Positions 3,752-59,548 of a stretch of DNA of 64,000 bases are shown in pieces. Location: positions 10,972 through 74,971 of the forward strand of contig PFLE01000013.1 in the NCBI GenBank assembly GCA_002784465.1, read 5' to 3'. The position numbers were made by a program, and so were the translations under genes. Positions within the stretch are counted from its first letter, which is position 1; each line of letters opens with the position of its first letter. The notes beneath the pieces are model-generated. The model did not search any database. It was given only the letters and a program-made list of their open reading frames with translations, and was not told where the DNA came from. Source of the DNA: Candidatus Shapirobacteria bacterium CG_4_10_14_0_8_um_filter_39_15 (GTDB lineage: Bacteria > Patescibacteriota > Microgenomatia > UM-FILTER-39-15).

Positions 3752-3872
3752 AGTAGGTAATCAGTTAATCAGGATATCGGGAAAAGAGAGTAGAGATCAG
3801 TTGTCAGAAATCTCCCGATATTCTGTTCTCTGTTTTACTTAACCCGATACTCTGGTCTACTGATTTACTTCT
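3752..3872. repeat. Palindromic ~120-bp dispersed repeat (family A: ATCAG/CTGAT words), copy R1, in the divergent promoter region of the SBP gene and tsaD
   Basis: GGTAATCAGTTAATCAGGATATCGGGAAAAGAGA...CTCTGTTTTACTT...TCTACTGATTTACT aligns at about 75% with the copy at 26873-26996 and with the other copies. The termini are inverted (ATCAG...CTGAT). Confidence 0.6.
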
Positions 3873-3909
3873 ATTTTCAGATTTATCTTTTTGGCCGTAT
3901 AATACTCCT

Positions 3910-5154
3910 ATGAAGATTTTAGCTATTGAATCCTCTTGTGATGAGACCGCTGCGGCGATTGTTGAAGATGGAACGAAAATTTTATCCAACGTTGTCGCCT
4001 CTTCGGTCGAAATGCACGCCAAAACCGGTGGCATTATTCCCGAGGTAGCGGCAAGAGAACAGGTTAAATGCATTATTCCCGTAATACAAGAGGCTCTCAA
4101 CAGGACAGATTTCAGTAAATCAGTAAAACAGTACAACAGTGAAACGGTAATCGGTAAAACGGTAAAAAAAGTTACTGAAATTACTGATTACTGTTCTACT
4201 GATTCACCGCTTAACCGTTTTACTGACATAGACGCCATAGCGGTAACCGTTGGTCCCGGATTGGTTGGTTCATTGCTTGTTGGTATTGAAACCGCTAAAA
4301 CGCTTGCCTATCTTTGGCAAAAACCAATTGTACCGATAAATCATTTGGTTGGACACATCTACGCGAATTGGCTTAACACCAGTAAACCAGTAGAACAGTT
4401 AAACCGTACAACAGCAGTCGGTAAGACAGTAAAAAAAGTTACTGAAATTACTGATTACTGTTCTACTGATTTACCGTTTCACTGTTTTACCGAACCGAAT
4501 TTTCCAGCGATAGCCCTCGTTGTTAGTGGCGGACATACTGATTTAGTTTTAATGAAAAACCATGGAAAAATTGAGTGGCTTGGCGGAACCAGAGACGATG
4601 CGGGCGGAGAATGTTTCGATAAATCGGCACGTTTACTGGATTTACCTTACCCTGGAGGTCCTTCTATCTCTGCCGCAGCTCAACAATATAGCAATATAAC
4701 AATAAAACAATCGGCCATTCGACTCCCTCGCCCCTTAATGGATGAAGATAACTTTGACTTTAGTTTTTCGGGATTAAAGACAGCGGTCCTCCGTGAGGTT
4801 CAAGACCTAAAAAACAATCAGCAATATAACAATATAACAGTAGAACAATTATCTTATGAACTCCAAGAAGCTATTACCGATGTTTTGGTTACTAAAACCA
4901 TTCGTGCTGCCGAAAAATATAAGGTTAAATCCATTCTTCTCGCCGGCGGCGTCTCCGCGAACCAAAGATTACGAGAAAAAATGCATTTAAAATTTAAAAA
5001 TTTAAAATTTAAAATTGAGTTTTGGTGTCCCCCGCCAAAACTTTGCACCGACAACGCCGCCTATATCGCTTCCTGCGCTTATTTCAACTATAAACCAGTC
5101 CCCTGGCAGGATATTAAAGTTAATCCGGGATTAACAATTTCCGACAAAATCTAG
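3910..5154 (+). CDS. tsaD: tRNA N6-adenosine threonylcarbamoyltransferase TsaD (Kae1/YgjD family) carrying in-frame repeat insertions
   Basis: N-terminus MKILAIESSCDETAAAIV, HAKTGGIIPEVAAREQ, VSGGHT, DFSFSGLKTAV and C-terminal CTDNAAYIA are present. It is 414 aa versus about 340 typical, because of two ~38-aa inserts and simple-repeat segments. Confidence 0.85.
   Translation: MKILAIESSCDETAAAIVEDGTKILSNVVASSVEMHAKTGGIIPEVAAREQVKCIIPVIQEALNRTDFSKSVKQYNSETVIGKTVKKVTEITDYCSTDSPLNRFTDIDAIAVTVGPGLVGSLLVGIETAKTLAYLWQKPIVPINHLVGHIYANWLNTSKPVEQLNRTTAVGKTVKKVTEITDYCSTDLPFHCFTEPNFPAIALVVSGGHTDLVLMKNHGKIEWLGGTRDDAGGECFDKSARLLDLPYPGGPSISAAAQQYSNITIKQSAIRLPRPLMDEDNFDFSFSGLKTAVLREVQDLKNNQQYNNITVEQLSYELQEAITDVLVTKTIRAAEKYKVKSILLAGGVSANQRLREKMHLKFKNLKFKIEFWCPPPKLCTDNAAYIASCAYFNYKPVPWQDIKVNPGLTISDKI
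4113..4226. repeat. Family-A-like palindromic element inserted in frame within tsaD (insert 1)
   Basis: cagtaaatcagtaaaacagtacaacagtg...gttactgaaattactgattactgttctactgattcacc is self-complementary (CAGTAAATCAG vs CTGATTTACTG words). It encodes DFSKSVKQYNSETVIGKTVKKVTEITDYCSTDSPLNRFTD, placed before the conserved IDAIAVTVGPG. Confidence 0.55.
4379..4492. repeat. Second in-frame palindromic insertion in tsaD (insert 2), about 85% identical to insert 1
   Basis: ...ggtaagacagtaaaaaaagttactgaaattactgattactgttctactgatttaccg... encodes TAVGKTVKKVTEITDYCSTDLPFHCFTEPN, placed between HIYANWLN and the conserved FPAIALVVSGGHT. Confidence 0.55.
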
Positions 5155-5295
5155 CCTCGCAAGGCCTGACCTTACGAGCTTAAACCTCATACACTATATC
5201 ATCACAAAGTGATGCTATAGCAAGACTTTGTGTCAAACAATTTAACAAAAAAAACAATTTAACAATTTTCTCCTCTCTTTGTGCTAAAATAAGGC

Positions 5296-5745
5296 ATGAT
5301 AGAAAATAAAAAATCCTTGGAAAAACCTGTTTATGCCTTTATTGATAGCCAAAATCTCAATCTTGGGGTTAGAAGTCAAGGTTGGAAACTTGATTGGCGG
5401 AAATTTAGACAATATTTACGGAATAAATATAATGTTGCAAACGCCTTTGCTTTTATTGGATATAAAGCAGGAAACGAAAAACTCTATCTTCAATTGCAGG
5501 AAATGGGTTACCTTGTAATTTTAAAACCAACTCTAGAACTTCCTGATGGATCAGTAAAAGGAAATGTTGATGCAGAACTAGTCCTGCATACCATGGTTCA
5601 GTTTAAGAACTTTAATAAAGCAATTATCGTTTCTGGAGACGGAGATTTTCATTGTTTGGTTGAGTATCTAGATCAACATGAAAAGATTTTTCATCTATTT
5701 GCTCCAAATAAACATTACTCATCGATTTACTTAGAAGTTCCCTAG
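5296..5745 (+). CDS. NYN-domain (LabA/DUF88-like) predicted RNase
   Basis: AFIDSQNL...KGNVDAELVLH...AIIVSGDGDF matches the NYN/LabA-like acidic-residue pattern. Confidence 0.55.
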   Translation: MIENKKSLEKPVYAFIDSQNLNLGVRSQGWKLDWRKFRQYLRNKYNVANAFAFIGYKAGNEKLYLQLQEMGYLVILKPTLELPDGSVKGNVDAELVLHTMVQFKNFNKAIIVSGDGDFHCLVEYLDQHEKIFHLFAPNKHYSSIYLEVP

Positions 5746-5853
5746 AATTAAAAGTGACCAAGATCAGCGGTCGGTCGAAACCTTAGGCTGCTTAGCTTGG
5801 TCATCGTGATGGTATAATCATACCAAATATTATTAAGTAAGTCAATTAGACGT

Positions 5854-7860
5854 ATGGATAAAAATTATGACCCAAAATTAGTTGAAGATAAAATTTACCA
5901 AATGTGGGAAGATGGCGGGTATTTTAAACCAAAAATTGATAAGACCAAAAAACCTTTTACCATCACCCTTCCCCCGCCAAATGTCACCGGTAGTCTTCAC
6001 GCCGGCCACGCAATGTATGTGATTGAAGATATTATGGTTCGCTACCACCGAATGCTTGGTGATCCAACCTTATGGCTGCCGGGTTTTGATCATGCCTCGA
6101 TTGCGGTCGAATATCTAGTTACCAAACGACTAGCCAAAGAAGGCAAGAACAAAAATGAAGTTGGTAGAGAAAAATTTATTAAAAGAGCCCTCGGCTTTAC
6201 CAATGAATCAAGAAGTTATATCCGCAACCAATTAAAAAAACTGGGCTTTTCTTTAGATTGGTCAAAAGAAGCTTATACCATGGACGAATCTTACGCCAGC
6301 GCAGTCAAGGAAGCTTTTAAAAGACTTTATGACAAAAATTTAATCTACAAAGGTGAAAGAATTATTAATTGGTGTCCTAAATGTCAAACCGCCATTTCTG
6401 ATTTGGAAAACGAACACCAAGAAGAAACCGGAAAACTTTATTATGTTAAATACGGTCCAATTACCATTGCCACCACTCGGCCGGAAACCATGTTTGCGGA
6501 TGTAGCGATCGCGGTTAATCCTAAAAATAATAATTACCAAAAATTTGTTGGTACTTTAGTCCCCCTTCCCCTAACTAACAGAAAAATCCCCGTTATCGAA
6601 GACGATGCGGTTGACCTGAATTTCGGAACCGGGGCTTTAAAAATTACTCCGGCTCATGATGAGTTGGATTTTGAAATTGGCAATCGTCATAAGCTTGAAA
6701 AATTATCAGTAATAAATAAGTATGGAAAATTAACCGAAATTGCAGGTAAATACGCCAACCTAAAAGTATTCGAGGCAAGAGAAGCAGTTGTAAATGATTT
6801 GCAGAACCAGAGCTTTTTGGAAAAGATTGAGGAATACAAACATTCTGTCGGCCATTGTCAAAGATGCCATACCATCACTGAACCGATTATTTCTGAGCAA
6901 TGGTTTGTTAAAACCGAAACTTTAGCTAAAAGAGCAATTAAGGCGGTAAAAGACGGTGAAATCAAAATCATTCCCAAATCGTTTGAAAAAATCTATTTTA
7001 ATTGGCTAAACAATATTCGGGATTGGTGCATTTCTAGGCAACTTTGGTGGGGACACAAAATTCCACTCGAAGGAGAAAACGATATTCTTGATACTTGGTT
7101 TTCTTCCGGACTTTGGCCGATCGCGGTTTTTGGTTGGCCAAACAAAACTTCTGAACTTAGTTATTTCTACCCTACCTCTGTCCGGGAAACAGGTTACGAT
7201 ATTTTATTTTTCTGGGTTTGCCGAGAAATTATGTTATGTTTGGAAATGACTAATCAAGTTCCCTTTCGAACCGTATATCTTCACGGTCTTATCCGGGATG
7301 AAAAAAATAAAAAATTTAGTAAAACTGCCGGCATTGGTTTTGATCCTTTAGAAATGATTGAAAAATACGGGGCTGACGCTTTAAGAATGGCTCTGGTTTT
7401 TGGCACGACCGCCGGCAAAGATCTGCATATCAATGAAGATAAAATCCGGGCGATGCGGAACTTTACAAACAAGATCTGGAACGCGGCGAGATTCACCTTG
7501 GCGCCTGAAATCAGCGTAGATCAGCGTACAAATCAGCGATCATCTGCGATTCATCCCGATGATCAATGGATCCTTTCGGAATTAGACAAAACAACAAAAA
7601 CAGTTACCCAGCATGTCGAGAAATATCAATTTGGACAAGCCGCAGAAGATTTGTACGAATTTTTCTGGCATTCATTTTGCGATAAATATATTGAAATGAC
7701 CAAAACCAGAAGAGAAGAGGCTCAACCGGCTTTGTTGTTTGTTCTAATTACCAGTCTCAAACTTCTCCACCCTTTTATGCCTTTTGTTACTGAAGAAATT
7801 TGGCAAAAAATGCCTCAACATGAAGACAAACCACTAATTATTGCCCAATGGCCAAAATAA
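5854..7860 (+). CDS. valS: Valine--tRNA ligase, short form lacking the C-terminal coiled-coil
   Basis: HIGH motif PPPNVTGSLHAGHA, KMSKS motif KFSKTAG, the CP1 editing region, and an anticodon-binding region. It ends at 668 aa. There is a simple-word in-frame segment at 7508-7550. Confidence 0.85.
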   Translation: MDKNYDPKLVEDKIYQMWEDGGYFKPKIDKTKKPFTITLPPPNVTGSLHAGHAMYVIEDIMVRYHRMLGDPTLWLPGFDHASIAVEYLVTKRLAKEGKNKNEVGREKFIKRALGFTNESRSYIRNQLKKLGFSLDWSKEAYTMDESYASAVKEAFKRLYDKNLIYKGERIINWCPKCQTAISDLENEHQEETGKLYYVKYGPITIATTRPETMFADVAIAVNPKNNNYQKFVGTLVPLPLTNRKIPVIEDDAVDLNFGTGALKITPAHDELDFEIGNRHKLEKLSVINKYGKLTEIAGKYANLKVFEAREAVVNDLQNQSFLEKIEEYKHSVGHCQRCHTITEPIISEQWFVKTETLAKRAIKAVKDGEIKIIPKSFEKIYFNWLNNIRDWCISRQLWWGHKIPLEGENDILDTWFSSGLWPIAVFGWPNKTSELSYFYPTSVRETGYDILFFWVCREIMLCLEMTNQVPFRTVYLHGLIRDEKNKKFSKTAGIGFDPLEMIEKYGADALRMALVFGTTAGKDLHINEDKIRAMRNFTNKIWNAARFTLAPEISVDQRTNQRSSAIHPDDQWILSELDKTTKTVTQHVEKYQFGQAAEDLYEFFWHSFCDKYIEMTKTRREEAQPALLFVLITSLKLLHPFMPFVTEEIWQKMPQHEDKPLIIAQWPK

Positions 7861-8369
7861 ATAAACCAAGACTATTTGTTTTTCTGTTTTTATTGATTAT
7901 CGCGTTTACCAGTCTTTATTCTCTTTTTCTTCCTAAAACCAGGGCTGAATTAGCCAAACAGCAATTAATTAATAATCCCAATGACATTCCTGCCCATCTG
8001 GTTTTAGCCGAAGAATTCTTGAATAACAACCAGCTCGAGGAAACACAAAAGGAATTGGTCGTCGTTGATAATCTAAACAAACAGCTAGCCCAAACCGAAC
8101 AGAAATCCAATGTTCTTGGAATCTCTTCAGTCGTCAATGGTCTTTGGACAAAGTGGCAGGAGGCAAATAAGACCGAACTAGAAAAGCTGGTTTTAAAATG
8201 GCGAGGAATTGTCGCCGATAACCTAAATTATCGCGACGGCTATCTGCGTTTGGCAATTTATTATTTCCGTCTGGGTGATGATCAAAAAGCCAAAGAAAAT
8301 CTAAATATCGCATTAAAGCTTGATCCCAATTTTGAGCCGGCAAAAAATCTTCAAAAATTCATTCCGTAG
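7848..8369 (+). CDS. Membrane-anchored hypothetical protein with TPR-like C-terminus
   Basis: Start overlaps the valS stop. TM segment LFVFLFLLIIAFTSLYSLF. Helical repeats (LAIYYFRLGDDQKAKENLNIALKLDPNF). Confidence 0.4.
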   Translation: MAKINKPRLFVFLFLLIIAFTSLYSLFLPKTRAELAKQQLINNPNDIPAHLVLAEEFLNNNQLEETQKELVVVDNLNKQLAQTEQKSNVLGISSVVNGLWTKWQEANKTELEKLVLKWRGIVADNLNYRDGYLRLAIYYFRLGDDQKAKENLNIALKLDPNFEPAKNLQKFIP

Positions 8370-8925
8370 AAAAAAGTCTAATCGTGGAAAGCATTAATTC
8401 AAATTGGCCCAAAAGCTGCGAATTGGCTGGCGTTAAAGAAATTTGGAATAAAGTATTTCCTTTGCGTAACAAATAATAAAAATTATTATTAACCATCAAC
8501 TTGGCCGCCTCGTTTCCCTGAATTGTCAGTGCCTCAAATTTTACCGGATTGTAGATTTTTGTTTCCGAATCATATTGACCAAATTGTCGATTAATATATT
8601 GAGACAAGGGCAAATTTTGGAAGCCGCTCACTTGCTGACTGACTACCAAAGTCACACAACTTTTCTCAACCAAAGGATTAATCGGAAAACCGTTCTCGTC
8701 AATACAATTGCTGGTTTGGAAATTGGCCAAAATTTTTATGCCGCTGCCTTGTTTTTTTTCAGAATAGAACCAGGTTGGCGGATATTTCAAAGAATAATCT
8801 AAGTCGCTTAAGGTTTTCCAACCGGCCGTCGGATTTTGTGCCGGCCTTCTGATTGCTTTAACTCCCAACAATAAAATAACAATCGTAACAATTGTAACAA
8901 GGAATGTCGCAGTTATTTTCTTCAT
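8359..8925 (-). CDS. Hypothetical secreted or membrane-anchored protein
   Basis: Likely start MKKITATFLVTIVTIVILLLG (internal Met of the ORF-track ORF; the track start overlaps the rplY 3' end). Confidence 0.4.
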   Translation of the reverse strand: MKKITATFLVTIVTIVILLLGVKAIRRPAQNPTAGWKTLSDLDYSLKYPPTWFYSEKKQGSGIKILANFQTSNCIDENGFPINPLVEKSCVTLVVSQQVSGFQNLPLSQYINRQFGQYDSETKIYNPVKFEALTIQGNEAAKLMVNNNFYYLLRKGNTLFQISLTPANSQLLGQFELMLSTIRLFSTE

Positions 8926-8935
8926 CAAAACGAAA

Positions 8936-9607
8936 TTATTCTTTTGGTGTTTCACTCGGAGCGGCCTCTTCGGTCGGTGTTTCTCCAGACGGAGCGGCTT
9001 CACCTTCGGCCGGAACTTCTGCCGCCGGAGGGGGCGTCACCACTTCTTCTTTTTGCAAAGCAACAATTTTTACTACCACTTCGGCCGGATCAGCCAAAAT
9101 CTTAATGATTTTAGTATCAACTTTAATTTCTCCAACCGTAATTTGATTATCAACCTCGACCAGACCAGAAATATCAACCGTTAATTTTTCCGGCAAATCG
9201 GCAGGCAGGGCCTCGACTTCCAATTCCGATAAAGGTTGAAGTAAAACCCCTAAGTTTTGCCTGATGGCTGGCGATTCACCAATTAGTTCTACCGGAACTT
9301 TCGCGGTTGTTTTTTCCGTTAAGGAAACCTCGTGGAAATCAATGTGAAGAATTTCTCCGGTTACCGGATGGATTTGAACATGGTGAATCAAAACCGGGTG
9401 AACCTTCTCCCCAATTTCAACATCAAGTAAAGTTGTCTCCCCGACCTGATCCCAAACTTTTTTAAACTCGTCATTTTTTACCTGAAGAGGTTCCGACTTA
9501 ATTTTCTTGCCATATAAATTAGCAGGGATTTTCCCCTCATTGCGGATTTTTTTAACCTTACGACCTAAGATTTCTCTTTTTTCGGCTTTAATGGCGATTC
9601 TTTTCAT
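8936..9607 (-). CDS. rplY: 50S ribosomal protein L25 / general stress protein Ctc
   Basis: MKRIAIKAEKREILGRKVKKIRNEGKIPANLYG..., with an acidic Pro/Glu-rich C-terminus typical of Ctc-form L25. Confidence 0.8.
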   Translation of the reverse strand: MKRIAIKAEKREILGRKVKKIRNEGKIPANLYGKKIKSEPLQVKNDEFKKVWDQVGETTLLDVEIGEKVHPVLIHHVQIHPVTGEILHIDFHEVSLTEKTTAKVPVELIGESPAIRQNLGVLLQPLSELEVEALPADLPEKLTVDISGLVEVDNQITVGEIKVDTKIIKILADPAEVVVKIVALQKEEVVTPPPAAEVPAEGEAAPSGETPTEEAAPSETPKE

Positions 9608-12381
9608 TTAATTAAAGAAATTTCCAACTGACGATCCTCGGATAAAGAAGTATTATATACTACCGACCCCTTCTCGGTCAAGATAGGGAAATTTGACCAA
9701 GAAACTGCCGAAGAAACCGGATAGGAAATCGATAACTTATAAGGGTCGCTGCTAAAACCTGATTGTTTTTGAATATATGCTAAATATTGTCCGGAAATAA
9801 ATTTTTGGCTCTCCGGCAATTGGTAGACAATTTCCAAGCTTTGTTTTCTACCCACGGGGACCGTCAAAACCAATCCAAATATTTTTTTACCAAGATCACT
9901 CGATTGCTCAACTTGACATTCTTGATTAGCAATCTGGCAGCCAATCAAGGAACTGTCCGAATTAACCAAAATCCGCAGATAGGCTTTGTAATCGCCGGCA
10001 GGAAAAACATTGCTCGGACTTTTGTTTTCGTAATCCAAACGCAAAGTTTCTTTTATTCCCCCATCCTCTTGAATCTGAACCGAACGGGAAATCGACCGAA
10101 CCAGAAAATAGTTGGCTTTGTTCACACCAACATTGGCCTCATTAACCATCAGATAATCGGACAAACAAGATCCAGATTTTTGACAAACAGCGTTTTCGAT
10201 TATTCCGTCCCAATGATTTTTCTCAAGAAAGGCGGCTATTTTAGAATCGTTGGAACTAATTAAAATATCTCTTTGGTTAAGCGATTCCATCATTGCTTGA
10301 AAAATTTTTATTTTCGTTTTCGCATCGGCGGATTTAATTTTGTCCATTAAAACCTGGGCCACTTGCCCTAAAAAATCTTCCTTTTGCTTTGATCCCGGGA
10401 AAAATCCGGCTTCAATATAATATTCGGCGGTTTGAAAAAAATTGTCGGCATTGATTGTTTCCCGATAATCAGGCAATTTCAATTCCCCAAACACCTTAAT
10501 TAATTTTTGGGCGGCGTTTAAATTAATTCCAATAACCGCATCGGCCTGCCGGCCGGTTTCTTTTTCCAGGAACCACTTGGCGCGGATCGCGTTCTGGCCA
10601 AAATCTGGGCTCCAATTCGAATCGCGCAAATACCAACCGTCAACACCCAAGAGTTCCTTCAGTCTTACCGGCGGCTCAACATGACCCTTTAGCTGGCCAT
10701 CAGCATCATAAACATCGCCAACGCCAAAATGAAAAAGCTTTCCCGATTCGAAAGAAGCTAGTCCATAAGAACCGATAAATCCTCCGCCCGGCCGAAGCTC
10801 CATATTGTTTTGAAAAAGAAAAAGATAAACTATCCCTTGATCAGCACCTAACAATTTCGGGGAAACAACCAAGAAATCGCGGTAAATTAATAAAAATTTT
10901 TTTATCTCGGGAATAAATTTTTTGATTTCCAGAATTTTTGGCCCAACAATTTTTTCCCGCCCGGTAAAACTATTTAATAAAGCATTCGTGACAGAGACTT
11001 TTTCAATCGCCGAATTGCACTCGACTTGCAACGAAGATAATGCTTCCTTGAAAGGTTGGTTTTCCGAGCCAATCACCGTTAAGAAAAGCAGGTTGCTTAA
11101 TTTACCAACCCGGCTTAAAACCAATAAGCTGTCTGCTAAATTTTCTCCTAGAGCAATTGTCTTTTCCTGATTACCCCAAACAAATTGGCCGGCTTTGGCA
11201 ATCGGACCAAGTAAGCTAATTTCTTTTTGAAAAACTAAGGTTTTATTTTCCAGATCCACAAAATCGCCTTTTCCGGCCAAGCGCTGAATTTCTTTCATTT
11301 GATAGACTAGTTGAAAGAAAATCAAGATTATAAACATCAAGGCAACAGCTAAAGAAGCAGGAATAAATAATAAAAATTTAGGAATTGTTTTTCGGGGGCG
11401 GGTTTTCTGTTCCTTTACCGCCGGCTTTCGGGAAAATTCCCTAAGAGTTTCTTTAATCCCATCTTCCAGGGTATATTCCGGACGCCAGCCTAAGGGGTTT
11501 TCGGTTTCTTGGGGTGTACTTTCGATTAAACTGGAGAAAGAATTTTGGGCCACATATTCGATTTCGATTTGCTTATCGGTTGCTAATTGCCGGTTTTTTT
11601 TCAATTCCTGACAAAAATCAACAAGCGTAATCGGATTAGCCGGTTTTAAATCAAAAATCTTGCCGGCGGTTCCCGGAACAAGAATTGACCGCAGGATGCC
11701 GCTGACCGCGTCTTTAACATAAAGCGGGTAAATTTTTCCCTCGCCTTCGGCCGGAATTTTCAGGTTTTGTCCGGACAACAATTGATCAAAACAATAACCA
11801 ATCAACCCTCCGTTCATTTTCATTCTTGGTCCATAAACATCGCCAACGCGAACGACCCGCAAGTCAAGATCTTGCCGCTTTAAATGATTAAGAATTAATC
11901 TTTCGGCGAACCGTTTCGATTCGTGAAAAGAGAGGTTCTCCCATTGGCCGGCGTTGTCCCAATCGGGCAATTTAAATATTTCCAAAGACGAACAGAATAA
12001 CAATTTGGCGTTGTTCTTTAAACATAAAGCGATTAAATTTTCGGTTCCGATTGAATTGCTTTGCATAATTTCCAAAGAAATATCTTTTCCGGAAAGATAT
12101 TCCTCAACTGAAGTTAAATTAAAAATATAGTTGATGGCCGGAAAGTGATTTTTAATATAGAAGTCCGGGTTGTTAATATTATCCTCCAACAAAACGAAAC
12201 TATTTTTTCCCTGCAGCGGTTCAATGTTTCTTTTTTCACCGGTTAAAAAATTATCGACACAAAGAACCTGACAATCTAAAGACAAAAGCGACTCGCACAA
12301 ATAAGAACCAACAAATCCGGCTCCGCCGGCAACCAGCGCCGTTGTTTTTCCGGGGGACAAATTTTCTAAAGAAGAAGGCAT
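9604..12381 (-). CDS. Fusion protein: NAD-dependent epimerase/dehydratase (UXS/RmlB-like), then a TM helix, then a large extracytoplasmic domain resembling DUF4012
   Basis: Rossmann GGAGFVGSYLCESLL at the N-terminus. TM segment LLFIPASLAVALMFIILIFF at about aa 335-355. The C-terminal ~570 aa contain LFQNNMELRPGGGFIGSYG (from memory, like the DUF4012 signature motif). Confidence 0.55.
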   Translation of the reverse strand: MPSSLENLSPGKTTALVAGGAGFVGSYLCESLLSLDCQVLCVDNFLTGEKRNIEPLQGKNSFVLLEDNINNPDFYIKNHFPAINYIFNLTSVEEYLSGKDISLEIMQSNSIGTENLIALCLKNNAKLLFCSSLEIFKLPDWDNAGQWENLSFHESKRFAERLILNHLKRQDLDLRVVRVGDVYGPRMKMNGGLIGYCFDQLLSGQNLKIPAEGEGKIYPLYVKDAVSGILRSILVPGTAGKIFDLKPANPITLVDFCQELKKNRQLATDKQIEIEYVAQNSFSSLIESTPQETENPLGWRPEYTLEDGIKETLREFSRKPAVKEQKTRPRKTIPKFLLFIPASLAVALMFIILIFFQLVYQMKEIQRLAGKGDFVDLENKTLVFQKEISLLGPIAKAGQFVWGNQEKTIALGENLADSLLVLSRVGKLSNLLFLTVIGSENQPFKEALSSLQVECNSAIEKVSVTNALLNSFTGREKIVGPKILEIKKFIPEIKKFLLIYRDFLVVSPKLLGADQGIVYLFLFQNNMELRPGGGFIGSYGLASFESGKLFHFGVGDVYDADGQLKGHVEPPVRLKELLGVDGWYLRDSNWSPDFGQNAIRAKWFLEKETGRQADAVIGINLNAAQKLIKVFGELKLPDYRETINADNFFQTAEYYIEAGFFPGSKQKEDFLGQVAQVLMDKIKSADAKTKIKIFQAMMESLNQRDILISSNDSKIAAFLEKNHWDGIIENAVCQKSGSCLSDYLMVNEANVGVNKANYFLVRSISRSVQIQEDGGIKETLRLDYENKSPSNVFPAGDYKAYLRILVNSDSSLIGCQIANQECQVEQSSDLGKKIFGLVLTVPVGRKQSLEIVYQLPESQKFISGQYLAYIQKQSGFSSDPYKLSISYPVSSAVSWSNFPILTEKGSVVYNTSLSEDRQLEISLIK

Positions 12382-12408
12382 TACTTGAATTTTAATCTGC
12401 GGGGCCGT

Positions 12409-12849
12409 TTAATGCAACAATTGTTCTGCTTGGTCTAAAGTTTGATTGACTAAACTATCCGCCAGAGAATTTTTTTCGCGGGGAATAAGACAATAAATTA
12501 TTATTTTATTTAGTTGTTTTTCCAATTGACGCGCTTGAATAATTAAGGACCGTAAACGAATATTTTTGATTTTATATATACCTTTTAGTTGATTAACCAT
12601 TAATTGTGAATCGGAAAAAAAATTTACGGTGTTAGTTTTTTCGCCGAGACTCTTTTTGTTTTTCAATAACCATTGCAGGGCCGCAATCATTGCCGAGAAT
12701 TCCGCAACGTTATTGGTTGTTTGTCCCAACGGCTTTCCCGTTCCGAAAATCTTTTTTCCGTTACCCGTCATCACGACAAAACCAATTGCTGCCGGTCCGG
12801 GATTTCCTCTTGCTCCGCCATCCGTATAAATATTTATTTCGTTATCCAT
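12409..12849 (-). CDS. rnhA: Ribonuclease HI
   Basis: IYTDGGARGNPGPAAIGFVV...TNNVAEFSAMIAALQ... is the RNase H fold, with catalytic D/E/D context. Confidence 0.85.
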   Translation of the reverse strand: MDNEINIYTDGGARGNPGPAAIGFVVMTGNGKKIFGTGKPLGQTTNNVAEFSAMIAALQWLLKNKKSLGEKTNTVNFFSDSQLMVNQLKGIYKIKNIRLRSLIIQARQLEKQLNKIIIYCLIPREKNSLADSLVNQTLDQAEQLLH

Positions 12850-14160: not shown

Positions 14161-14163
14161 GTT

Positions 14164-15384: not shown

Positions 15385-15389
15385 TTGTT

Positions 15390-16645: not shown

Positions 16646-16654
16646 ACAATTTAG

Positions 16655-53207: not shown

Positions 53208-53211
53208 ATCA

Positions 53212-53290
53212 GCACACAAGAGCACTAGTACGTCAGAACACCAGAGCGCTGGAAACTAGTACACTGGTGCACTAGATCACCAGATCACTA
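53212..53290. repeat. Left arm of CACTAGTAC-word inverted repeat flanking four-helix-bundle gene copy 3
   Basis: cacaagagcactagtacgtcagaacaccagagcgctggaaactagtacactggtgcactagatcaccagatcactagtactctagg; partner arm at 53681-53760. Confidence 0.6.
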
Positions 53291-53308
53291 GTACTCTAGG
53301 ATAGGATT

Positions 53309-53668
53309 ATGAACGAAGATGCTTCTTACAAAAAACTAATAATTTGGCAAAAGGCCGATCTTTTTGCTAGAGAAATCTATAAAGTCACAGTATTTTTTCC
53401 CAAAGATGAAATATATGGTTTAACCTCCCAGATACGAAGAGCTGTTCTCTCCGTTGTTCTTAATATTATTGAAGGTTATGCAAGAAATAATAAGAAAGAA
53501 TTTAAGAATTTTTTAAGGATTGCTTATGCTTCGTTGGTTGAGGTTGAATATTTGCTCGAATTTTCATCTGTTAGAGGCTACATAACGAAAGAAAAATATT
53601 TTTTTCTTAATGGTTTAAGAGACGAATGTGGAAAAATTCTTTGGAAGTTTATGCTTTCCCAAAAATAG
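53309..53668 (+). CDS. Four-helix-bundle protein (23S-IVS / Avd superfamily), copy 3
   Basis: KKLIIWQKADLFAREIYKVT...GLTSQIRRAVLSVVLNIIEGYARNNKKEFKNFLRIAYASLVEVEYLLEF. Confidence 0.75.
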   Translation: MNEDASYKKLIIWQKADLFAREIYKVTVFFPKDEIYGLTSQIRRAVLSVVLNIIEGYARNNKKEFKNFLRIAYASLVEVEYLLEFSSVRGYITKEKYFFLNGLRDECGKILWKFMLSQK

Positions 53669-53680
53669 CGATTTATTATC

Positions 53681-53760
53681 CTGGCGTACTAGTGTACTAG
53701 TGTTCTGGAGTACTCGTTTGTTGGTTCTGGTGTACTGGCTCACTAGTGTTCTAGTGTACT
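53681..53760. repeat. Right arm of CACTAGTAC-word inverted repeat
   Basis: ctggcgtactagtgtactagtgttctggagtactcgtttgttggttctggtgtactggctcactagtgttctagtgtact. Confidence 0.6.
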
Positions 53761-54253
53761 AAAACAATCCGGTACTTAACCCCAGAATTTTCTCCATAAT
53801 CTGGGTAATCCAGAAGGCACAGAAAATGATCAGAAAACCGATTAAGGCACCGGTTAATTTGCCTTTGGCCGAAGCGGCCGCTTTTGGATCGCCGGCGCTA
53901 ACCATCAATTGAAAACCTCCGGCAATCAGCATTAACAGTAAAATAATTCCGGCCAATCCAAAAATCCAGGGAAGTAAAAGGGAAACGATGGCGCCAATGC
54001 TGGTGAATTGTGGATTAAAATTGGGAACACTGATTCCATGAAAAGAGGTGCTATTTGGAACACAACAGAATCTAGGTCCACGGGCAACGGCCTGGCAATC
54101 CATTTTCCCATTATTGGTTTCCCCAAATGGGTTACATACAGTTTTACAAATCCCATAAATGGCAGTACAATCATTTCCGTTGACCGCAAAAATATTGTTT
54201 GGTGAAATAAAAAGGGAAAGAAAAATAAATAAAAAGATAATTTTTTTTAGCAT
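53759..54253 (-). CDS. VirB2/TrbC-like pilin paralog with N-terminal defensin-like cysteine domain
   Basis: Signal peptide; DCTAIYGICKTVCNPFGETNNGKMDCQAVARGPRFCC (C-x6-C-x3-C-x12-C-x9-CC); then the pilin module LMLIAGGFQLMVSAGDPKAAASAKGKLTGALIGFLIIFCAF. Confidence 0.55.
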   Translation of the reverse strand: MLKKIIFLFIFLSLFISPNNIFAVNGNDCTAIYGICKTVCNPFGETNNGKMDCQAVARGPRFCCVPNSTSFHGISVPNFNPQFTSIGAIVSLLLPWIFGLAGIILLLMLIAGGFQLMVSAGDPKAAASAKGKLTGALIGFLIIFCAFWITQIMEKILGLSTGLF

Positions 54254-54761: not shown

Positions 54762-54810
54762 TAATTTTAGTTTAGCATACTCTGGTGGAATTTAACAACT
54801 AAAGAGTAAG

Positions 54811-54935
54811 AAGATCAGTTGAACAGAAAATCAGGTTAAGAAAACAGAGAGCAGAGAACTGTTAATTCAATATTGCCGATATTCTGATCTCCGATAATCT
54901 TTTCCTGATATACTGGTCTACTGATTTACCATTAA
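54811..54935. repeat. Family A palindromic repeat, copy R5 (divergent region between the pilin pair and the SpoIID-domain gene)
   Basis: GAAGATCAGTTGAACAGAAAATCAGGTTAAGAAAACAGAGAGCAGAG...CCGATATTCTGATCTCCGAT...CCTGATATACTGGTCTACTGATTTACC closely parallels R3. Confidence 0.55.
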
Positions 54936-54953
54936 CTGTTATAATTACACAAG

Positions 54954-56711
54954 ATGAAACTTCGCCGCCCAATTTTTATTTTACTGGTTGTCTTGTGTAC
55001 TAGTTCACTAGTGCACTGGTACACTAGTACATCAGTACGCGCCCTCTCTCCCGATTGCAGCCAGCCTGCTTCTAATATTCCGCCGGATAAATGGGAGACT
55101 TGCCGTTTGGAATACGAAAAAGAAGCAGATCTATTGGGCTCGGCCAATGCGACCAATCGGGAAGAACTGACCAGTCTGCAAAAACAGTTGACCAGTCTAA
55201 GTCAAAGAATCAAAGCCTTGGGAAATCAGATTGATTCATTGAGTAAAGATATTACCAATCGTGAAGTGGACATTGGGGTTCAGGAAAAACTTCTTTCTGC
55301 CAGAATCCGCGATTATTATATTAAAAGCCATTATTTTTCACCCCTATTGATCTTTTTTTCTTCCAAAACCGCCACCGATTTATCAAGGGAATTAAGTTTG
55401 CGCAACGCGGTGATGACTAATGACAAAAACGCGATTTTATCCCTTTCCCAAAAAGTGACCCAATTAACCAGTGACAAAACCACGGTTCAAAAAAACAAAG
55501 ATTCTTTAACCGCTTTGGCCAAAAAAGTTGACGACCGGGCGACTTTTTTACAAGGGGAAGTTAAAAAAACGGAATCATATTTAGCGGCCTTAAGCGCCAA
55601 ACAACAAGAGTTGATTGCCTTAAAGGCGGGCGGATTTTCGACCTCTGTCGGAGATGTCCCGCCGGCCGATGATCCGGCTTCCCGGCCCGATTATAATCCG
55701 GGTTTTTCTCCGGCATTTGCCGCTTTTTCTTTTGGCGCGCCTCACCGGAAAGGAATGAGTCAATACGGCGCTTTTGGCCGAGCTAAGCTCGGTCAATCGG
55801 TTGAAGATATTTTGCATGCTTATTACGGCGGGGGAATTGAAATTAAAAAAGATTATTCCAATGAAACGATCGTGCTTGGTAGATATAATTCTCAGGGTAA
55901 GTTAATTTGCGATCAAGGATCTGTTGATTTAGAAACGTATGCAAAACGGATTTATGAAATGCCCGGATCTTGGGGAGATAGTGGTGGCATGGAAGCACTC
56001 AAGGCCCAGGCCGTCGCAGCAAGATCGTACGGTTTAGCTGCAGTAAAAGGGAGCGGTTGTATTTGCATGACCGAAGCCTGCCAGGTTTACAAACCGGCGA
56101 ACAAAGGCGGTAAATGGGACGAAGCGGTTAACGTCACCCGCGGTTGGGTATTAATGGCCAACGGCCAGCCTTTTTCGGCCTGGTATGCGTCAACGGCCGG
56201 CGGCTATACTTTTTCTTATACCGGTAATGGTTATTCAACGCCCGGTTTATGGGATACGACCGGCGGTCGAGGAGCTTGGACAGATGGCGCTTATGAAAAA
56301 CTGGCCGGATCGCCCTGGTTTTATAAAGCCTGGTATCGGGTGAGAAGCGGCGATGTTTGCGGCGGCCGGAATCATCCCTGGCTAACATCTTCAGACATGG
56401 CTGATATTCTGAATGCCTGGAAAGTTTTATTTCAAGGCGGCGGTGATGCCGGCCGAATTTTTCCACCTGACAATTGCGGCGGGGGCAATCCTTATTCCAT
56501 AAGCGAATTGCAGACGATCGGCGGTTTTACCGGCGTTTCCGGCGTTTCCCAAGTAATTTATGGCGATAACGGCTCAACCATTTCCGTCAGCCTAGTAACC
56601 AATAAAGGAGAAGTGAAAATTACTGGTGAAGAATTCAAAAAGGCCTTTAACTTGCGGGCGCCGGGCAATATCGGTATCAAGAGCTCACTTTTTAATCTGG
56701 TTAAAAAATGA
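54954..56711 (+). CDS. SpoIID/LytB-domain protein with N-terminal signal/TM and coiled-coil region
   Basis: C-terminal domain with GMSQYGAFGRAKLGQSVEDILHAYYGG (SpoIID signature). N-terminal coiled coil (LTSLQKQLTSLSQRIKALGNQIDSL). The signal-peptide region is encoded by CACTAGT-word repeats (55000-55040). Confidence 0.65.
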   Translation: MKLRRPIFILLVVLCTSSLVHWYTSTSVRALSPDCSQPASNIPPDKWETCRLEYEKEADLLGSANATNREELTSLQKQLTSLSQRIKALGNQIDSLSKDITNREVDIGVQEKLLSARIRDYYIKSHYFSPLLIFFSSKTATDLSRELSLRNAVMTNDKNAILSLSQKVTQLTSDKTTVQKNKDSLTALAKKVDDRATFLQGEVKKTESYLAALSAKQQELIALKAGGFSTSVGDVPPADDPASRPDYNPGFSPAFAAFSFGAPHRKGMSQYGAFGRAKLGQSVEDILHAYYGGGIEIKKDYSNETIVLGRYNSQGKLICDQGSVDLETYAKRIYEMPGSWGDSGGMEALKAQAVAARSYGLAAVKGSGCICMTEACQVYKPANKGGKWDEAVNVTRGWVLMANGQPFSAWYASTAGGYTFSYTGNGYSTPGLWDTTGGRGAWTDGAYEKLAGSPWFYKAWYRVRSGDVCGGRNHPWLTSSDMADILNAWKVLFQGGGDAGRIFPPDNCGGGNPYSISELQTIGGFTGVSGVSQVIYGDNGSTISVSLVTNKGEVKITGEEFKKAFNLRAPGNIGIKSSLFNLVKK

Positions 56712-57538: not shown

Positions 57539-57598
57539 GTTGGTTATAGACATCACGTTTCGGATTAAATGTGATGTATATATAAAATCGTATTTTAT

Positions 57599-59431
57599 AT
57601 GAAAAATTTTACTGTCCGAATATCCAAACTGGTTGGTCCGCCAACCGTTTCCTCCTGGTCGCAAATTCATGATTTTTTTCCTGACGATCTAGAAAAAAAA
57701 CAAAAACGGGGAATTTTTCTGGCGGTTTTAACTTTTTCCGGGGTGGAACAAGGAATTGACGCTGTCAGTTACGGCCGGGAAATTCTGTCTCGAATTCATG
57801 AAGAATATTATGGAGAGATCGAGACCTCGGCGATGGAAAAACTGGTTACCTCGGTAAAAAAAGTTGCGGCGGAGTTTGACGGGAGCGAACATCATCTGGA
57901 AATAATTGCTGGTGCATTGGTGGAAAACGCTCTATATTTGGCAATTTCCGGTTTGGGGGAAGTTTTAGTGAAAAGGAACGGTCAATTACAGAAGATTCTG
58001 GTTGGGACTAGTGAAAAAACCGAAAGCGCCAGCGGTTTTGTTCTACCCGGGGATTTAGTGGTTTTCGGAACCGAAGCATTGGCTAAAAATTTGGCCGACG
58101 GCGTATTAAAAGCCGCCTTGGATAATGAAACACCCGAGGAAATAACCGAGGTTTTAGCACCGTTGACAATCGGCAAAGAAGAAAATGCCCAAATCGCCTG
58201 TTTGGTTTTTCGGGTTTCGGAAATACCAGAATCAGTTTCAGAACCGCCGCCGGCAAAAAAAGCGAAATTTAAAATCAGCGTTCCGAAAATTAATTTAAGG
58301 CGTTTTACGATTAAGGTTTCTTCGGAATCCACAAAAGGCCGGCGAATCGCCTTCAGCATTGCCTTGGTATTAATTGTTTTACTGCTTACCAGCGTTTTTT
58401 TTGGGATTACCAAAAGAGGCCAAACGGAAAAAACCAAAATTTACACCGACTTGTCCGTTCAAATTGACCAAAAAATCAATGACGGGCAAGCTTTAGTGAC
58501 ATTAAATCCGAGCAAAGCCAAAGAACTTTTTCTTTCGGCTCAACAACAGCTCGATCAATTGAAAAACCTCAAAATTAATATTCCGGAAACCCAGCAATTG
58601 ACCGCTAAAGTTGAAGACGCTTTGGGATTGGTCGTTAAGGAATACAGCTTAAGCGAGGCGCCGCTTTTTTTTGATCTGGGTTTAATTAAAGATAAAGCCA
58701 GCGGCAACCAATTGTTTCTTTTGGGTAAAAAATTAGTCGTTTTTGATAAAGCCGCCAATAATATCTATACGATTGATATCGATCAGAAATCGGCTAAAAT
58801 TGCCGCGGGCAAGGATTTACCGGTCAACTCCCGGTTGATTGCCGGCGATAGTAATTTTGTTTTTACCTTAGGAGACGAAGGGATTTTTAAAACCGATCTT
58901 TCGAACCAAACGACCAGTCAAATGATTAAAACCGATTCCGAATGGGGGCAAATTAAAGCGCTCGGTGATTTTGGCGGCAATCTTTATTTATTTGATCCGT
59001 TAAAAAAGAGCATTTGGCGCTATCAAAGTTTGGAAACCGGTTTTTCTACCAAACAAACCTGGTTTAAATCAACCACTCTGCCTGATTTTGCCGGCGCCGT
59101 TTCCATGGCGGTTGACGGCTCAATCTGGTTATTGGATCAAAATGGTAAAATTTATAAATTCACCGGCGGGGTCCAGGAAAGTTTTAGCTTAAAAGGCTTG
59201 GATAAGCCATTACTATTACCGGCAGTGATTTATACTGATTCAGACCAAACTAATGTCTATATTTTGGATAAAGGCAATAATCGGATCTTGGTATCCAGCA
59301 AATCAGGTGATTACCAAGGCCAATATATTTGGGAGGGATTATCGGGAATTACCGATTTTGTCGTGACGGAAACGGACAAAAAAATCTTTTTACTGCAAGA
59401 GAATAAAATTTTAACAATTGAGTTAAAGTAA
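57599..59431 (+). CDS. Hypothetical bitopic protein (cytoplasmic N-domain, TM, large extracytoplasmic C-domain)
   Basis: TM IAFSIALVLIVLLLTSVFFGI at about aa 245-267; C-terminal region with repeated beta-rich segments; no family recognised. Confidence 0.4.
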   Translation: MKNFTVRISKLVGPPTVSSWSQIHDFFPDDLEKKQKRGIFLAVLTFSGVEQGIDAVSYGREILSRIHEEYYGEIETSAMEKLVTSVKKVAAEFDGSEHHLEIIAGALVENALYLAISGLGEVLVKRNGQLQKILVGTSEKTESASGFVLPGDLVVFGTEALAKNLADGVLKAALDNETPEEITEVLAPLTIGKEENAQIACLVFRVSEIPESVSEPPPAKKAKFKISVPKINLRRFTIKVSSESTKGRRIAFSIALVLIVLLLTSVFFGITKRGQTEKTKIYTDLSVQIDQKINDGQALVTLNPSKAKELFLSAQQQLDQLKNLKINIPETQQLTAKVEDALGLVVKEYSLSEAPLFFDLGLIKDKASGNQLFLLGKKLVVFDKAANNIYTIDIDQKSAKIAAGKDLPVNSRLIAGDSNFVFTLGDEGIFKTDLSNQTTSQMIKTDSEWGQIKALGDFGGNLYLFDPLKKSIWRYQSLETGFSTKQTWFKSTTLPDFAGAVSMAVDGSIWLLDQNGKIYKFTGGVQESFSLKGLDKPLLLPAVIYTDSDQTNVYILDKGNNRILVSSKSGDYQGQYIWEGLSGITDFVVTETDKKIFLLQENKILTIELK

Positions 59432-59432
59432 A

Positions 59433-59548
59433 ACAGTAAATCAGAAGATCTGGTAAAGCAAATCCGAGAGCAGAATATCAGTAAGGAGAGAACAGATTTC
59501 CGATCCCTGTTCTCTTGACCCGATTTTACCGATTTACTGATATTCTTA
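59433..59548. repeat. Family A palindromic repeat, copy R6 (upstream of smpB)
   Basis: AAACAGTAAATCAGAAGATCTGG...CCGAGAGCAGAATATCAG...CTGTTCTCTTGACCCGATTTTACCGATTTACTGATATTCTTATTG. Confidence 0.5.

Follow-up and report, generated by a model that had tools for sequence, protein, structure and literature searches.

Six copies of one dispersed hairpin family

What are the six palindromic repeats that lie between genes in the window (i.e., the whole 64,000-nucleotide stretch of DNA analyzed here), and from what kind of element do they derive? A sequence-only reading had described them as a dispersed MITE/RPE-like family, here called family A, and all six were found within a few bases of where that reading had placed them:

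3748-3876, plus strand: R1, full-length copy (E 2.6e-33)
16648-16733, plus strand: R2, internally deleted copy (E 1.1e-18)
17456-17590, minus strand: R3, copy in the rpmH-dnaA spacer (E 1e-32)
26871-27002, plus strand: R4, full-length copy (E 5.2e-35)
54802-54938, plus strand: R5, diverged copy of ambiguous orientation (E 3e-31 on the plus strand, 1.7e-29 on the minus strand)
59425-59554, minus strand: R6, diverged copy (E 9.5e-31)

Using a profile built from the six copies, nhmmer recovers the truncated R2 at E 1e-18 and the other five copies at E 5e-35 to 1e-30. Matches also far exceed shuffled controls (100 shuffles), with 4 versus 0.00 expected for a two-arm IUPAC pattern and 14 versus 0.01 expected for a 13-mer arm core. 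A family-specific pattern search returned ∼30 more distinct copies from contigs of the same kind of aquifer metagenomes, and an alignment of 32 copies has 19 invariant and 38 near-invariant columns, with the ordered blocks that had been read from the six copies recurring throughout. The six hairpin repeats (∼125 bp) are thus true copies of one dispersed family, and the description of a palindrome with inverted termini (AGWWWATCAG...CTGATTTACT in the alignment) holds, with many further copies beyond the window. The proposed split into R1/R2/R4 and R3/R5 subfamilies does not: R3 is of the R2/R4 type in the opposite orientation, the reverse complement of R3 being 85% identical to R4 and 88% to R2, versus 77% between R3 and R5, so that the R3/R5 subfamily is an artifact of orientation.

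Family A is non-coding and about 120-135 bp long. Each arm consists of three 8-nt units (ATCAGnnn), a short GAnAAGA linker, and three 7-nt units, and faces its near-complement, so that an imperfect hairpin of about 45-55 pairs can form from either strand. Conservation lies in the CAG/CTG cores, which recur at 8- or 7-nt intervals, rather than in the pairs; the spacers differ between copies, as do many of the pairs. The arms differ in the same way in all 32 copies (left CAGTTRATCAG, right CTGATCTACTG), and this conserved asymmetry implies copying from a master element, from which the family-A copies would share common descent.

The copies sit in 5′ leaders and intergenic spacers, in mixed orientation relative to the neighboring genes, and five of the six in the window end 3-19 nt from a start codon. 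R1 and R5 lie between divergent starts. For R1 these belong to a solute-binding-protein gene (3733, minus strand) and tsaD (3910); for R5, to a gene resembling T4SS pilins (54761, minus strand) and to one with a SpoIID domain (54954). R2, which has lost most of its right arm and keeps the left arm and the right-arm tip, is 3-7 nt upstream of the start of a yidC-like gene (16645, minus strand; PF02096). R3, inverted relative to R2 and R4, is nested in a second inverted array (AAATCCG units at 17435-17458, their complement at 17591-17612). R4 lies between two co-directional minus-strand genes, overlapping the stop of 26997-27962, with the 26863 start 8 nt downstream of it. R6 overlaps the stop of the ORF at 57599-59431, and the probable smpB ATG (59559) follows 5 nt beyond its end.

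Folds are stable, but selection on RNA structure is unsupported

Folding energies of the window copies, each a long and imperfect hairpin, range from -23.6 to -45.7 kcal/mol (z from -3.2 to -5.6 versus dinucleotide shuffles), with R1 at the stable extreme (-45.7 kcal/mol, z -5.6), and 83% of stem cells are paired, compared with 35-44% when the partners are slid. Such stability, together with the location of copies in leaders and between co-directional genes, would suit a module that selection retains for the host, whether as a structured regulatory RNA, as a bidirectional terminator, or as a promoter. However, the stems show no covariation (6 doubly changed pairs, below the shuffled expectation of 11.0) and no excess of G-U over A-C (76 versus 77), leaving a selected RNA structure without support; family A has no Rfam match, its orientation to neighboring genes is mixed, and no terminator or promoter consensus occurs inside R1-R3, the three copies scanned. 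The earlier suggestion that the repeats supply promoters is likewise not supported: no sigma-70-like site lies inside R1-R3, and in the only adjacent one just the first bases of the -35 box fall within R1, the -10 box lying outside it. Nor does R1 end in a TATAAT, which is found about 22 nt beyond the element (3898-3903). We consider this kind of host-kept module very improbable.

Sister copies in frame in tsaD

Two further matches to the family-A profile lie inside a protein-coding gene:

4110-4226, plus strand: sister palindromic array, in frame in tsaD (E 3.8e-09)
4377-4493, plus strand: second sister copy, in frame in tsaD (E 1.3e-08)

In the first, CAGTAAAA units face TTTTACTG and encode SKSVKQYNSETVIGKTVKKVTEITDYCSTDSPLNRFT in a loop of variable length among homologs; the second shares 85% identity with the first across 114 nt and occupies a second variable loop. 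Every third unit is altered in both, whereby an in-frame TAA is removed. These insertions are diverged copies of a sister family rather than family A proper. With two such diverged members inside the tsaD ORF, the repeats are not confined to intergenic sites.

Unit number does shift in situ, a tsaD ortholog differing by exactly three units (24 nt), and Coxiella strains vary in heptamer number (PMC4990558). Such changes, and the far more regular tandem repetition of arrays in other phyla, could point to an independent local origin of each palindrome, by slippage and hairpin-templated expansion, with convergence on a microsatellite-like form. Yet slippage would not reproduce the ordered non-repetitive blocks, the linker, and the arm asymmetries shared by 32 copies, an alignment that already largely refutes this origin; it is the least probable of the readings considered here.

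Inverted arrays flank four-helix-bundle genes

Arrays of 7-8-nt units recur in the window around, or apart from, genes for four-helix-bundle proteins:

53210-53776, plus strand: complete cassette (8-nt array, four-helix-bundle gene, inverted array)
27975-28425, minus strand: second four-helix-bundle gene locus (gene 28010-28375, TIGR02436)
36975-37440, minus strand: truncated four-helix-bundle gene locus (gene 37018-37360)
15151-15212, no strand: gene-less ACTTTTG-unit array, 90% complementary to 36988-37026
54984-55035, plus strand: orphan GTACTAGT-type array with the same units as the complete cassette

In the complete cassette, CACTAGTA/CACCAGAT units (53210-53307) precede the gene (53309-53668; PF05635, E 1.1e-33), which is followed by inverted GTACTAGT units (53673-53776). 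The second gene has short inverted arrays of CTATGCAC units and their complement on its two sides, and the truncated gene, a probable pseudogene, is flanked by inverted 7-nt arrays (TTCAAAA and TTTTGAA). The complementarity of the ACTTTTG array to an array flanking this gene marks it as an orphan array of another unit type. The 5′ end of the SpoIID-domain ORF includes the array at 54984-55035, which there encodes the peptide CTSSLVHWYTSTSVR. Neither the construction from 7-8-nt units nor the link to these cassettes had been noticed in the sequence-only reading.

The architecture is not limited to the window. Comparing 27 PF05635/TIGR02436 genes (four-helix-bundle, 23S rRNA IVS protein, Avd-like), three of them from the window and all examined as flanked by inverted 7-8-nt arrays, with 186 control ORFs gave p = 1e-10 for the inverted-flank score and p = 1e-12 for two-sided 7/8-nt periodicity. 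The architecture is present at three window sites, at 9/9 plasmid-borne homologs chosen by protein only (8/9 with clearly inverted arrays), and at 6/6 homologs from six lineages. ATCAG-type arrays accompany 10/10 genes of one protein subfamily versus about 2/20 others, and many phyla have ATCAG-type units in inverted arrays. The family-A profile matches the cassette arrays of the ATCAG subfamily and none of the cyanobacterial cassettes, whose genes are flanked by heptamer arrays. At two loci, L054 and L076, arms of the family-A type flank four-helix-bundle genes, the complete hairpin adjoining the gene rather than strictly bracketing it, and an insertion in a 23S rRNA gene contains one family-A copy, cassettes also lying within the 16S gene of that operon. 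The window itself has no four-helix-bundle gene with arms of the family-A type; the cognate gene was found only on short contigs of the same samples that cannot be tied to this genome, and none of 37 gene-less arrays in other phyla has a four-helix-bundle ORF within its locus of 3-8 kb. Arrays and gene could be merely co-inherited, without functional interaction.

An ordinary MITE, derived from an insertion sequence by deletion and mobilized in trans by the transposase of that element, would account for the size, copy number, inverted termini, and AT-rich intergenic sites; the likeness to four-helix-bundle cassettes would then be coincidental or result from landing nearby, in keeping with the lack of strict bracketing at L054 and L076. 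Against this, no target-site duplication is visible at the 32 aligned copies, no transposase occurs among the Pfam-annotated neighbors of the examined loci, repeated short units fill the whole element rather than its ends alone, and unit type co-varies with four-helix-bundle subfamily across phyla. We regard such an origin as unlikely.

A second alternative is that the copies are useful to the host as binding sites, a multimeric nucleic-acid-binding protein (the pentamer-forming four-helix-bundle protein or another factor) reading the periodic ATCAG cores in DNA or 5′ leaders and regulating the adjacent genes. Conservation concentrated on the cores and the closeness of copies to start codons would fit, as would the fact that reverse-complementing the ATCAGTTA unit gives TAACTGA(T) (PMC4679880) and the five chains in each of the entries for two solved homologs (2GSC and 2RLD). 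But the adjacent genes (yidC, tsaD, dnaA, smpB, pilin-like) have no common function, almost any intergenic site in this compact genome is near a start codon, and copies are also found in genes for rRNA and for protein, as would be expected of a selfish element more than of an operator. This alternative seems to us somewhat less likely still than an ordinary MITE.

Discussion

The explanation that we favor, and hold to be reasonably probable, is that family A consists of selfish, gene-less, MITE/RPE-like relatives of a cassette that is found across phyla and has inverted arrays of 7-8-nt units on both sides of a small four-helix-bundle gene (PF05635/TIGR02436, "S23p," Avd-like). That cassette is the ORF-containing intervening sequence (IVS) already known from 23S rRNA genes. 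Once transcribed, the hairpin would present a dsRNA substrate and, as the sequence-only reading also proposed and by analogy with the Coxiella IVS and Correia elements, for which cleavage has experimental proof, is probably cut by RNase III, such that processing or excision would do little harm to host RNA; the likeness of the Coxiella IVS stem arrays and the family-A copy in a 23S insertion lend support to such cutting. The invariant ATCAG/CTGAT cores may be kept through recognition by some factor, most obviously the cognate four-helix-bundle protein. Spread would proceed without a cut-and-paste DDE transposase. Against this explanation, near-identical strain contigs show no presence/absence polymorphism, so that recent mobility is not supported, and no empty orthologous site was recovered; the lack of a gene with family-A arms in the window, of four-helix-bundle ORFs beside the 37 gene-less arrays, and of covariation or G-U excess in the stems also counts against it.

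Among known systems, the 23S rRNA IVS of Coxiella and Leptospira ("S23p," PF05635) have the same architecture as the three window genes, and the family-A copy within a 23S rRNA gene insertion is a further point in common. The Coxiella IVS carries an S23p ORF, has inverted repeats at its ends containing tandem heptamers in varying number, and forms a long stem that RNase III cuts (PMC4990558); CPR rRNA genes carry PF05635 ORFs in insertions (bioRxiv 10.1101/2024.02.27.582315). The six window copies differ from IVS in having no ORF and in lying in mRNA leaders or spacers, not in rRNA genes.

Cyanobacterial STRR repeats are comparable to family A in being tandem heptamer arrays. The TAACTGA and other heptamer direct repeats of Beggiatoaceae, Cyanobacteria, and Bacteroidetes resemble family A in their 7-nt units and core, TAACTGA being the complement of TCAGTTA; they are mostly intergenic, often abut start codons, are patchy across phyla, change by whole units, and, lying just upstream of start codons, have been proposed to regulate (PMC4679880). 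They are described as direct arrays, whereas family A is an inverted pair of fixed length with non-repetitive blocks, and no link to four-helix-bundle genes is made in that study. REP/REPIN elements, mobilized by RAYT (Y1 HUH) transposases, are likewise palindromes scattered outside genes that lack target-site duplications, and the units here include GTAG-like motifs (ATCAGTAGATCAG), but REP palindromes are about 20-40 nt, paired into REPINs, and RAYT-associated, and no RAYT gene was seen in the annotated neighborhoods.

Correia and ERIC MITEs are also short, hairpin-folding, and numerous, with terminal inverted repeats and co-transcription with neighbors, and Correia hairpins are cut by RNase III (PMC10969869); family A differs from them in showing no target-site duplication, in having no known parent IS or transposase, and in arms filled by units. 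Rickettsia palindromic elements (RPE), likewise selfish palindromes (about 100-150 bp) dispersed through a small genome, occur between genes and in frame in loops of essential proteins (PMC10969869). They differ in host phylum, are not described as 7-8-nt unit arrays or as linked to four-helix-bundle genes, and have their in-frame counterparts here in a sister family, not in family A; with those sister copies in frame in tsaD, the likeness to RPE holds better than the sequence-only reading could have known.

Six copies of a short palindromic repeat

All six copies of the dispersed palindromic repeat (family A) claimed in the sequence-only reading are present in the window, where a six-copy profile recovers five of them within E 5e-35 to 1e-30 and the shorter R2, which has lost most of its right arm, at E 1e-18.

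Family-A copies in the window
3748-3876: R1
16648-16733: R2, shorter copy
17456-17590: R3, nested inside an outer inverted array of AAATCCG units
26871-27002: R4
54802-54938: R5
59425-59554: R6

That family A is a real repeat family is certain. Against shuffled controls, the two-arm pattern gave 4 matches with 0.00 expected and the 13-nt arm core gave 14 with 0.01 expected, the fold of every copy is a long imperfect hairpin (-23.6 to -45.7 kcal/mol; z -3.2 to -5.6), and a family-specific pattern found further copies outside the window in metagenome contigs of the same type. Pairwise identity among the copies is 69-88%, with R2, R4 and the reverse complement of R3 forming a tight group; the R3/R5 subfamily proposed earlier is therefore a product of orientation only. 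The DNA of the window is also on record within contig PEYO01000017.1 (GCA_002778865.1) and in several JGI/ENA groundwater metagenomes, and TsaD homologs, with the names of their sources, assign the organism to the Patescibacteria/CPR. In six related contigs (L051, L053, L061, L066, L069 and L079), family-A copies often have another small hairpin repeat in their flanks, so that the palindromes are nested; this second repeat has an approximate consensus of TGTCATTCC, a stem-loop and GGAATCTATAT, plus the complement.

Family A is copy-derived and built of short units

We aligned 32 distinct full-length copies, 6 from the window and the remainder from related metagenome contigs, over 163 columns, of which 19 are invariant and 38 near-invariant. 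The copies are non-coding and 120-135 bp long, at a density of 6 in the 64 kb of the window and ∼32 in the window and related contigs together. Their consensus reads AAGAATATCAGTTAATCAGAATATCAGGAnAAGAAATCAGAGATCAGAAATCAGT, a loop and ACTGATATTCTGTTCTCTGnTTTACTTAACCTGATTTTCTGATCTACTGATTTACT, so that each arm consists of three 8-nt units with an ATCAG core, a linker and three 7-nt units. The termini are AGWWWATCAG and CTGATTTACT, and the arms are complementary along their whole length, with 83% of cells paired. They are nevertheless inexact complements, left-arm CAGTTRATCAG lying opposite right-arm CTGATCTACTG as a conserved internal mismatch. Because this asymmetry is common to the copies, they descend from a master sequence and did not originate locally: family A is a copy-derived palindromic family of short units.

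Fold, promoters and leaders

Searching the window with Rfam 15 at the gathering threshold returned matches only for tmRNA and two tRNAs, and none for family A. Just downstream of the tmRNA gene (60647-61009) lies a perfect 50-nt direct repeat (TTTGTTTAACAACAAAGAGCTTCGGAGTGGCACGGCCACCCTTTATTTTT; 61018-61067 and 61143-61192, 125 nt apart). The two adjacent tRNAs (62227-62404) have long arms; ARAGORN calls both tRNA-Ser (gct and tga), and Rfam calls the second tRNA-Sec (55 bits, threshold 47).

RNAalifold recovered only 11 pairs from the 32-copy alignment because of alignment gaps and was replaced by a structure pooled from single-sequence folds. In this 44-pair structure, 83.3% of cells pair, as compared with 35-44% when the partners are slid. 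Doubly changed pairs are fewer than in shuffles (6 versus 11.0), the covariation score is lower (0.074 versus 0.095), on each measure no fewer than 498 of the 500 shuffles attained the observed value, and there is no excess of G-U over A-C (76 versus 77). The pairing is thus inherited through conserved columns, mainly the CAG/CTG cores, and nothing shows selection for a one-strand RNA fold.

The suggestion that the repeats supply promoters found no support at R1-R3: scanning 3600-17800 for consensus sites turned up nothing promoter-like or terminator-like within these three copies, the TTTTCA-N18-TATAAT site ahead of tsaD merely abuts the end of R1, and the dnaA promoter-like site falls outside R3. 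For five of the six, just 3-19 nt separate the end of the copy from a start codon; they must therefore lie where the promoters or leaders of yidC, tsaD, smpB and other genes are, yet leave these genes functional. In 3898-3912, a TATAAT box ends 6 nt before the tsaD ATG, which suggests that the tsaD mRNA is leaderless or nearly so; several other repeat-adjacent genes likewise leave too little room for a leader with a Shine-Dalgarno sequence.

Inverted unit arrays belong to four-helix-bundle cassettes

Three metagenomic arrays lie directly upstream of, or around, small ORFs, and an ORF in the window (53309-53668) encodes a member of the same protein family. This ORF also has a weaker match to the Avd protein of diversity-generating retroelements, and its solved homologs 2GSC and 2RLD contain five chains per entry each. 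The cassette that it forms with its flanking arrays (53210-53776) is wedged between uppS and T4SS-pilin-like genes, and the window holds two further four-helix-bundle genes as well as orphan arrays.

Four-helix-bundle genes and related arrays in the window
53210-53307: 8-nt array of GTACTAGT-type units
53309-53668: four-helix-bundle ORF; PF05635 '23S rRNA intervening sequence protein', E 1e-33; TIGR02436 'four helix bundle protein'
53673-53776: inverted counterpart of the array at 53210-53307
28010-28375, minus strand: second four-helix-bundle gene, with short inverted CTATGCAC arrays; cassette 27975-28425
37018-37360, minus strand: third four-helix-bundle gene, truncated, with inverted TTTTGAA heptamer arrays; cassette 36975-37440
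15151-15212: orphan array, unit type as around 37018-37360
54984-55035: orphan array, unit type as in the cassette at 53210-53776

The association between gene and arrays was examined in three tests, with loci chosen without regard to arrays. A tblastn search of plasmids with the window protein returned 26 records, and all nine genes fetched (from eight cyanobacterial or Gemmatimonadota plasmids and an Azospirillum 23S rRNA intervening sequence, IVS) have 7-8-nt arrays on their flanks, in eight cases clearly inverted; the genes from this search are often wedged between co-oriented host genes, for example cas6 and cas4. Homologs of the subfamily with family-A-type arms number 255, at 55-87% identity, and come from CPR, Bacteroidales, WOR-3, Planctomycetota, Margulisbacteria and Omnitrophica, and each of the six fetched, from different lineages, has ATCAG-type arrays upstream and CTGAT-type arrays downstream. 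When 27 four-helix-bundle genes were set against 186 control ORFs of the same loci, their median inverted-flank alignment score was 24, the control mean being 11.7 (Mann-Whitney p = 1e-10), with 20 of the 27 genes at or above the control 95th percentile, and period-7/8 repetition on both flanks separates the two sets with p = 1e-12.

Such arrays are therefore part of four-helix-bundle cassettes, and their unit type follows the protein subfamily: ATCAG-type arrays accompany 10/10 genes of the subfamily as against about 2/20 other four-helix-bundle genes. Co-inheritance alone could explain this correspondence between unit type and subfamily. Family-A-type arms themselves flank four-helix-bundle genes in two contigs (L054 and L076); the cognate gene of the L054 type occurs in the same samples as the window, but only on contigs of at most 5.7 kb, and so is not placed in the window's genome. 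In another contig (L073, ∼9000-9800), a putative intein, recognized by eye from Hint-type motifs on both sides, contains a four-helix-bundle cassette whose arrays consist of CAAGGTT heptamers.

Related arrays are translated in frame in tsaD

The family-A profile also matches two stretches inside the tsaD ORF (4110-4226 and 4377-4493; E ∼1e-8 to 4e-9). These are palindromic arrays of CAGTAAAA units, 85% identical to one another, that are translated in frame into two 38-residue inserts, and every third unit in them is altered to CAGTAC or CAGTTA, which removes a TAA that would otherwise be in frame. The insert sites are two TsaD loops whose length varies from zero to ∼45 residues among 41 CPR homologs, and TsaD here is 414 aa long as against about 340 aa. 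Conservation of the inserts extends to orthologs of 54-70% identity: one with 70% TsaD identity has both inserts plus a 24-nt block equal to three units, and in another, at 60% identity, a different hairpin, made of 7-nt units, occupies one insert site. R1 is lacking in the relatives with 70% and 60% TsaD identity; the neighboring genes differ in both, and its absence there is thus no clean empty site.

Further short peptide-palindromic segments occur at other variable sites in the alignment of CPR TsaD homologs (window 4240-5154), for example HLKFKNLKFKIEF, encoded by ATTTAAA repeats at 4985-5016, and KFKIENLKLKI in homologs. These peptide palindromes suggest repeated insertion of hairpin DNA at permissive loops.

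Arrays in rRNA genes, after fabF and in other phyla

Inside the 23S rRNA gene of one related contig (L061, region 10545-10850), a full family-A copy (10603-10725) lies within a ∼300-nt insertion, nested in another hairpin repeat, and the 16S gene of the same operon (433-2239 and ∼3108-4850) carries two four-helix-bundle cassettes in insertions, one of them with CAGTAAAA-type arrays like those of the tsaD inserts. None of the six window copies is in an rRNA gene. Arrays related to family A are thus found both in frame in tsaD and in rRNA genes.

A different location recurs in three organisms, in which ATCAG-type cassettes directly follow the stop codon of a fabF-like ketoacyl-ACP synthase gene. 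One of them (L102, 1000-2440) has two tandem ATCAG-type cassettes at this place, each followed by a diverged, intact-reading duplicate of the last ∼120 nt of fabF, and contigs from the other two (L074 and L100) have a cassette at the same place. Such duplicates are what cassette entry by recombination at a conserved 3' gene end would be expected to leave, and they are a hint about mobility. It should be noted that the identity between the window and six contigs of its population is 99.96-100%, without indels, so that these contigs are uninformative about mobility and unit slippage.

A scan with the two-arm pattern that took one genome per species found 37 loci, all outside the window's own genome, among them Chloroflexota (15 loci of one MAG), Thermoanaerobaculia, Mucilaginibacter, Saprospiraceae, Planctomycetaceae, Verrucomicrobiae, Actinomycetes and WOR-3. 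Nearly all consist of ATCAGTAG, ATCAGTTA, ATCAGTAA or ACCAGGAA units opposite their complements, and the family-A profile matches arrays of other phyla with E down to 2e-17. No four-helix-bundle gene lies within the stored 3-8 kb loci of these 37 arrays, and viral contigs gave no match to the two-arm pattern.

Discussion

A palindromic family in a small genome is ordinary; the anatomy of family A ties it to something broader. We consider it fairly probable that family A derives from IVS-type cassettes, being a gene-less derivative of the ATCAG-type cassette, and it probably spreads without a classical transposase. The invariant cores may be recognition sites, perhaps for the cognate four-helix-bundle protein, and by analogy with IVS stems, family-A transcripts would probably be processed by RNase III.

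The four-helix-bundle family is very common, Avd-related, and annotated as 'four helix bundle protein', 'S23 ribosomal protein' or '23S rRNA IVS protein'. It appears to travel as a cassette whose unit type tracks the protein subfamily. A more ambitious reading, which we offer tentatively as a possibility less likely than not, is that four-helix-bundle proteins and inverted arrays constitute one mobile cross-phylum system in which the protein recognizes its own unit type, perhaps with one unit per subunit of a pentamer, and that orphan arrays would be left behind or copied by the system. If so, orphan arrays would explain ORF-less rRNA IVSs, STRR/TAACTGA heptamers, CPR palindromic families and in-frame palindromic inserts. 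The findings as a whole suggest a shared origin for ORF-bearing and ORF-less rRNA IVSs, the heptamers of cyanobacteria and giant sulfur bacteria, and the palindromic insertions in CPR proteins and rRNAs. On the practical side, such arrays break assemblies, inflate ORFs (e.g., TsaD) and can mislead annotation.

Comparison with known systems

Family A resembles MITEs in being short, non-coding and dispersed in many copies with terminal inverted repeats. It differs from them in that no target-site duplication or shared flank is visible, as judged by eye, at the 32 aligned copies, and in that the gene-bearing relatives found encode a PF05635 protein and never a transposase. No RAYT (Y1 transposase) gene appears in the Pfam lists of neighboring genes. 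A CRISPR-like array was rejected for want of spacers, and Chi, KOPS, DNA-uptake-sequence arrays and telomere-like repeats were rejected as having no support beyond unit length.

With IVS cassettes the likeness is structural, family A and the 27 cassettes alike being built as inverted repeats of short tandem units and pairing into a long stem; family-A copies differ in lacking an ORF, and the complete cassettes of the window have other unit types. PF05635 ORFs are on record in CPR rRNA insertions (bioRxiv 10.1101/2024.02.27.582315) and have been noticed inside cas operons (PMC3936711). The Coxiella 23S IVS, studied experimentally and long suspected of being mobile in origin, combines an S23p ORF with terminal inverted repeats; these pair into a 28-bp stem, within which RNase III cuts, and the IVS carries two or three tandem GACAGAT heptamers, depending on the strain (PMC4990558). 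No statement of a general array-gene rule was found in the open-access literature on PF05635, TIGR02436 and S23p, and searches with the unit strings returned no relevant paper.

Like TAACTGA arrays and STRRs, family A has tandem units (TRF and lag-8 autocorrelation) with cores that recur every 8 and then every 7 nt, and related arrays change by whole units, tsaD orthologs differing by three. Those are direct arrays, whereas family A pairs two degenerate arrays in inverted orientation, with unique linkers. TAACTGA heptamer repeats, which have the same core as the family-A unit, occur in Beggiatoaceae, Cyanobacteria and Bacteroidetes; they have been described as of unknown function, with no link made to four-helix-bundle genes (PMC4679880). 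Finally, we do not count the tsaD inserts among the Rickettsia palindromic elements, their host being a CPR bacterium, but they, and among our arrays this sister family only, behave as those elements do, being in frame and at fold-compatible sites (PMC10969869).
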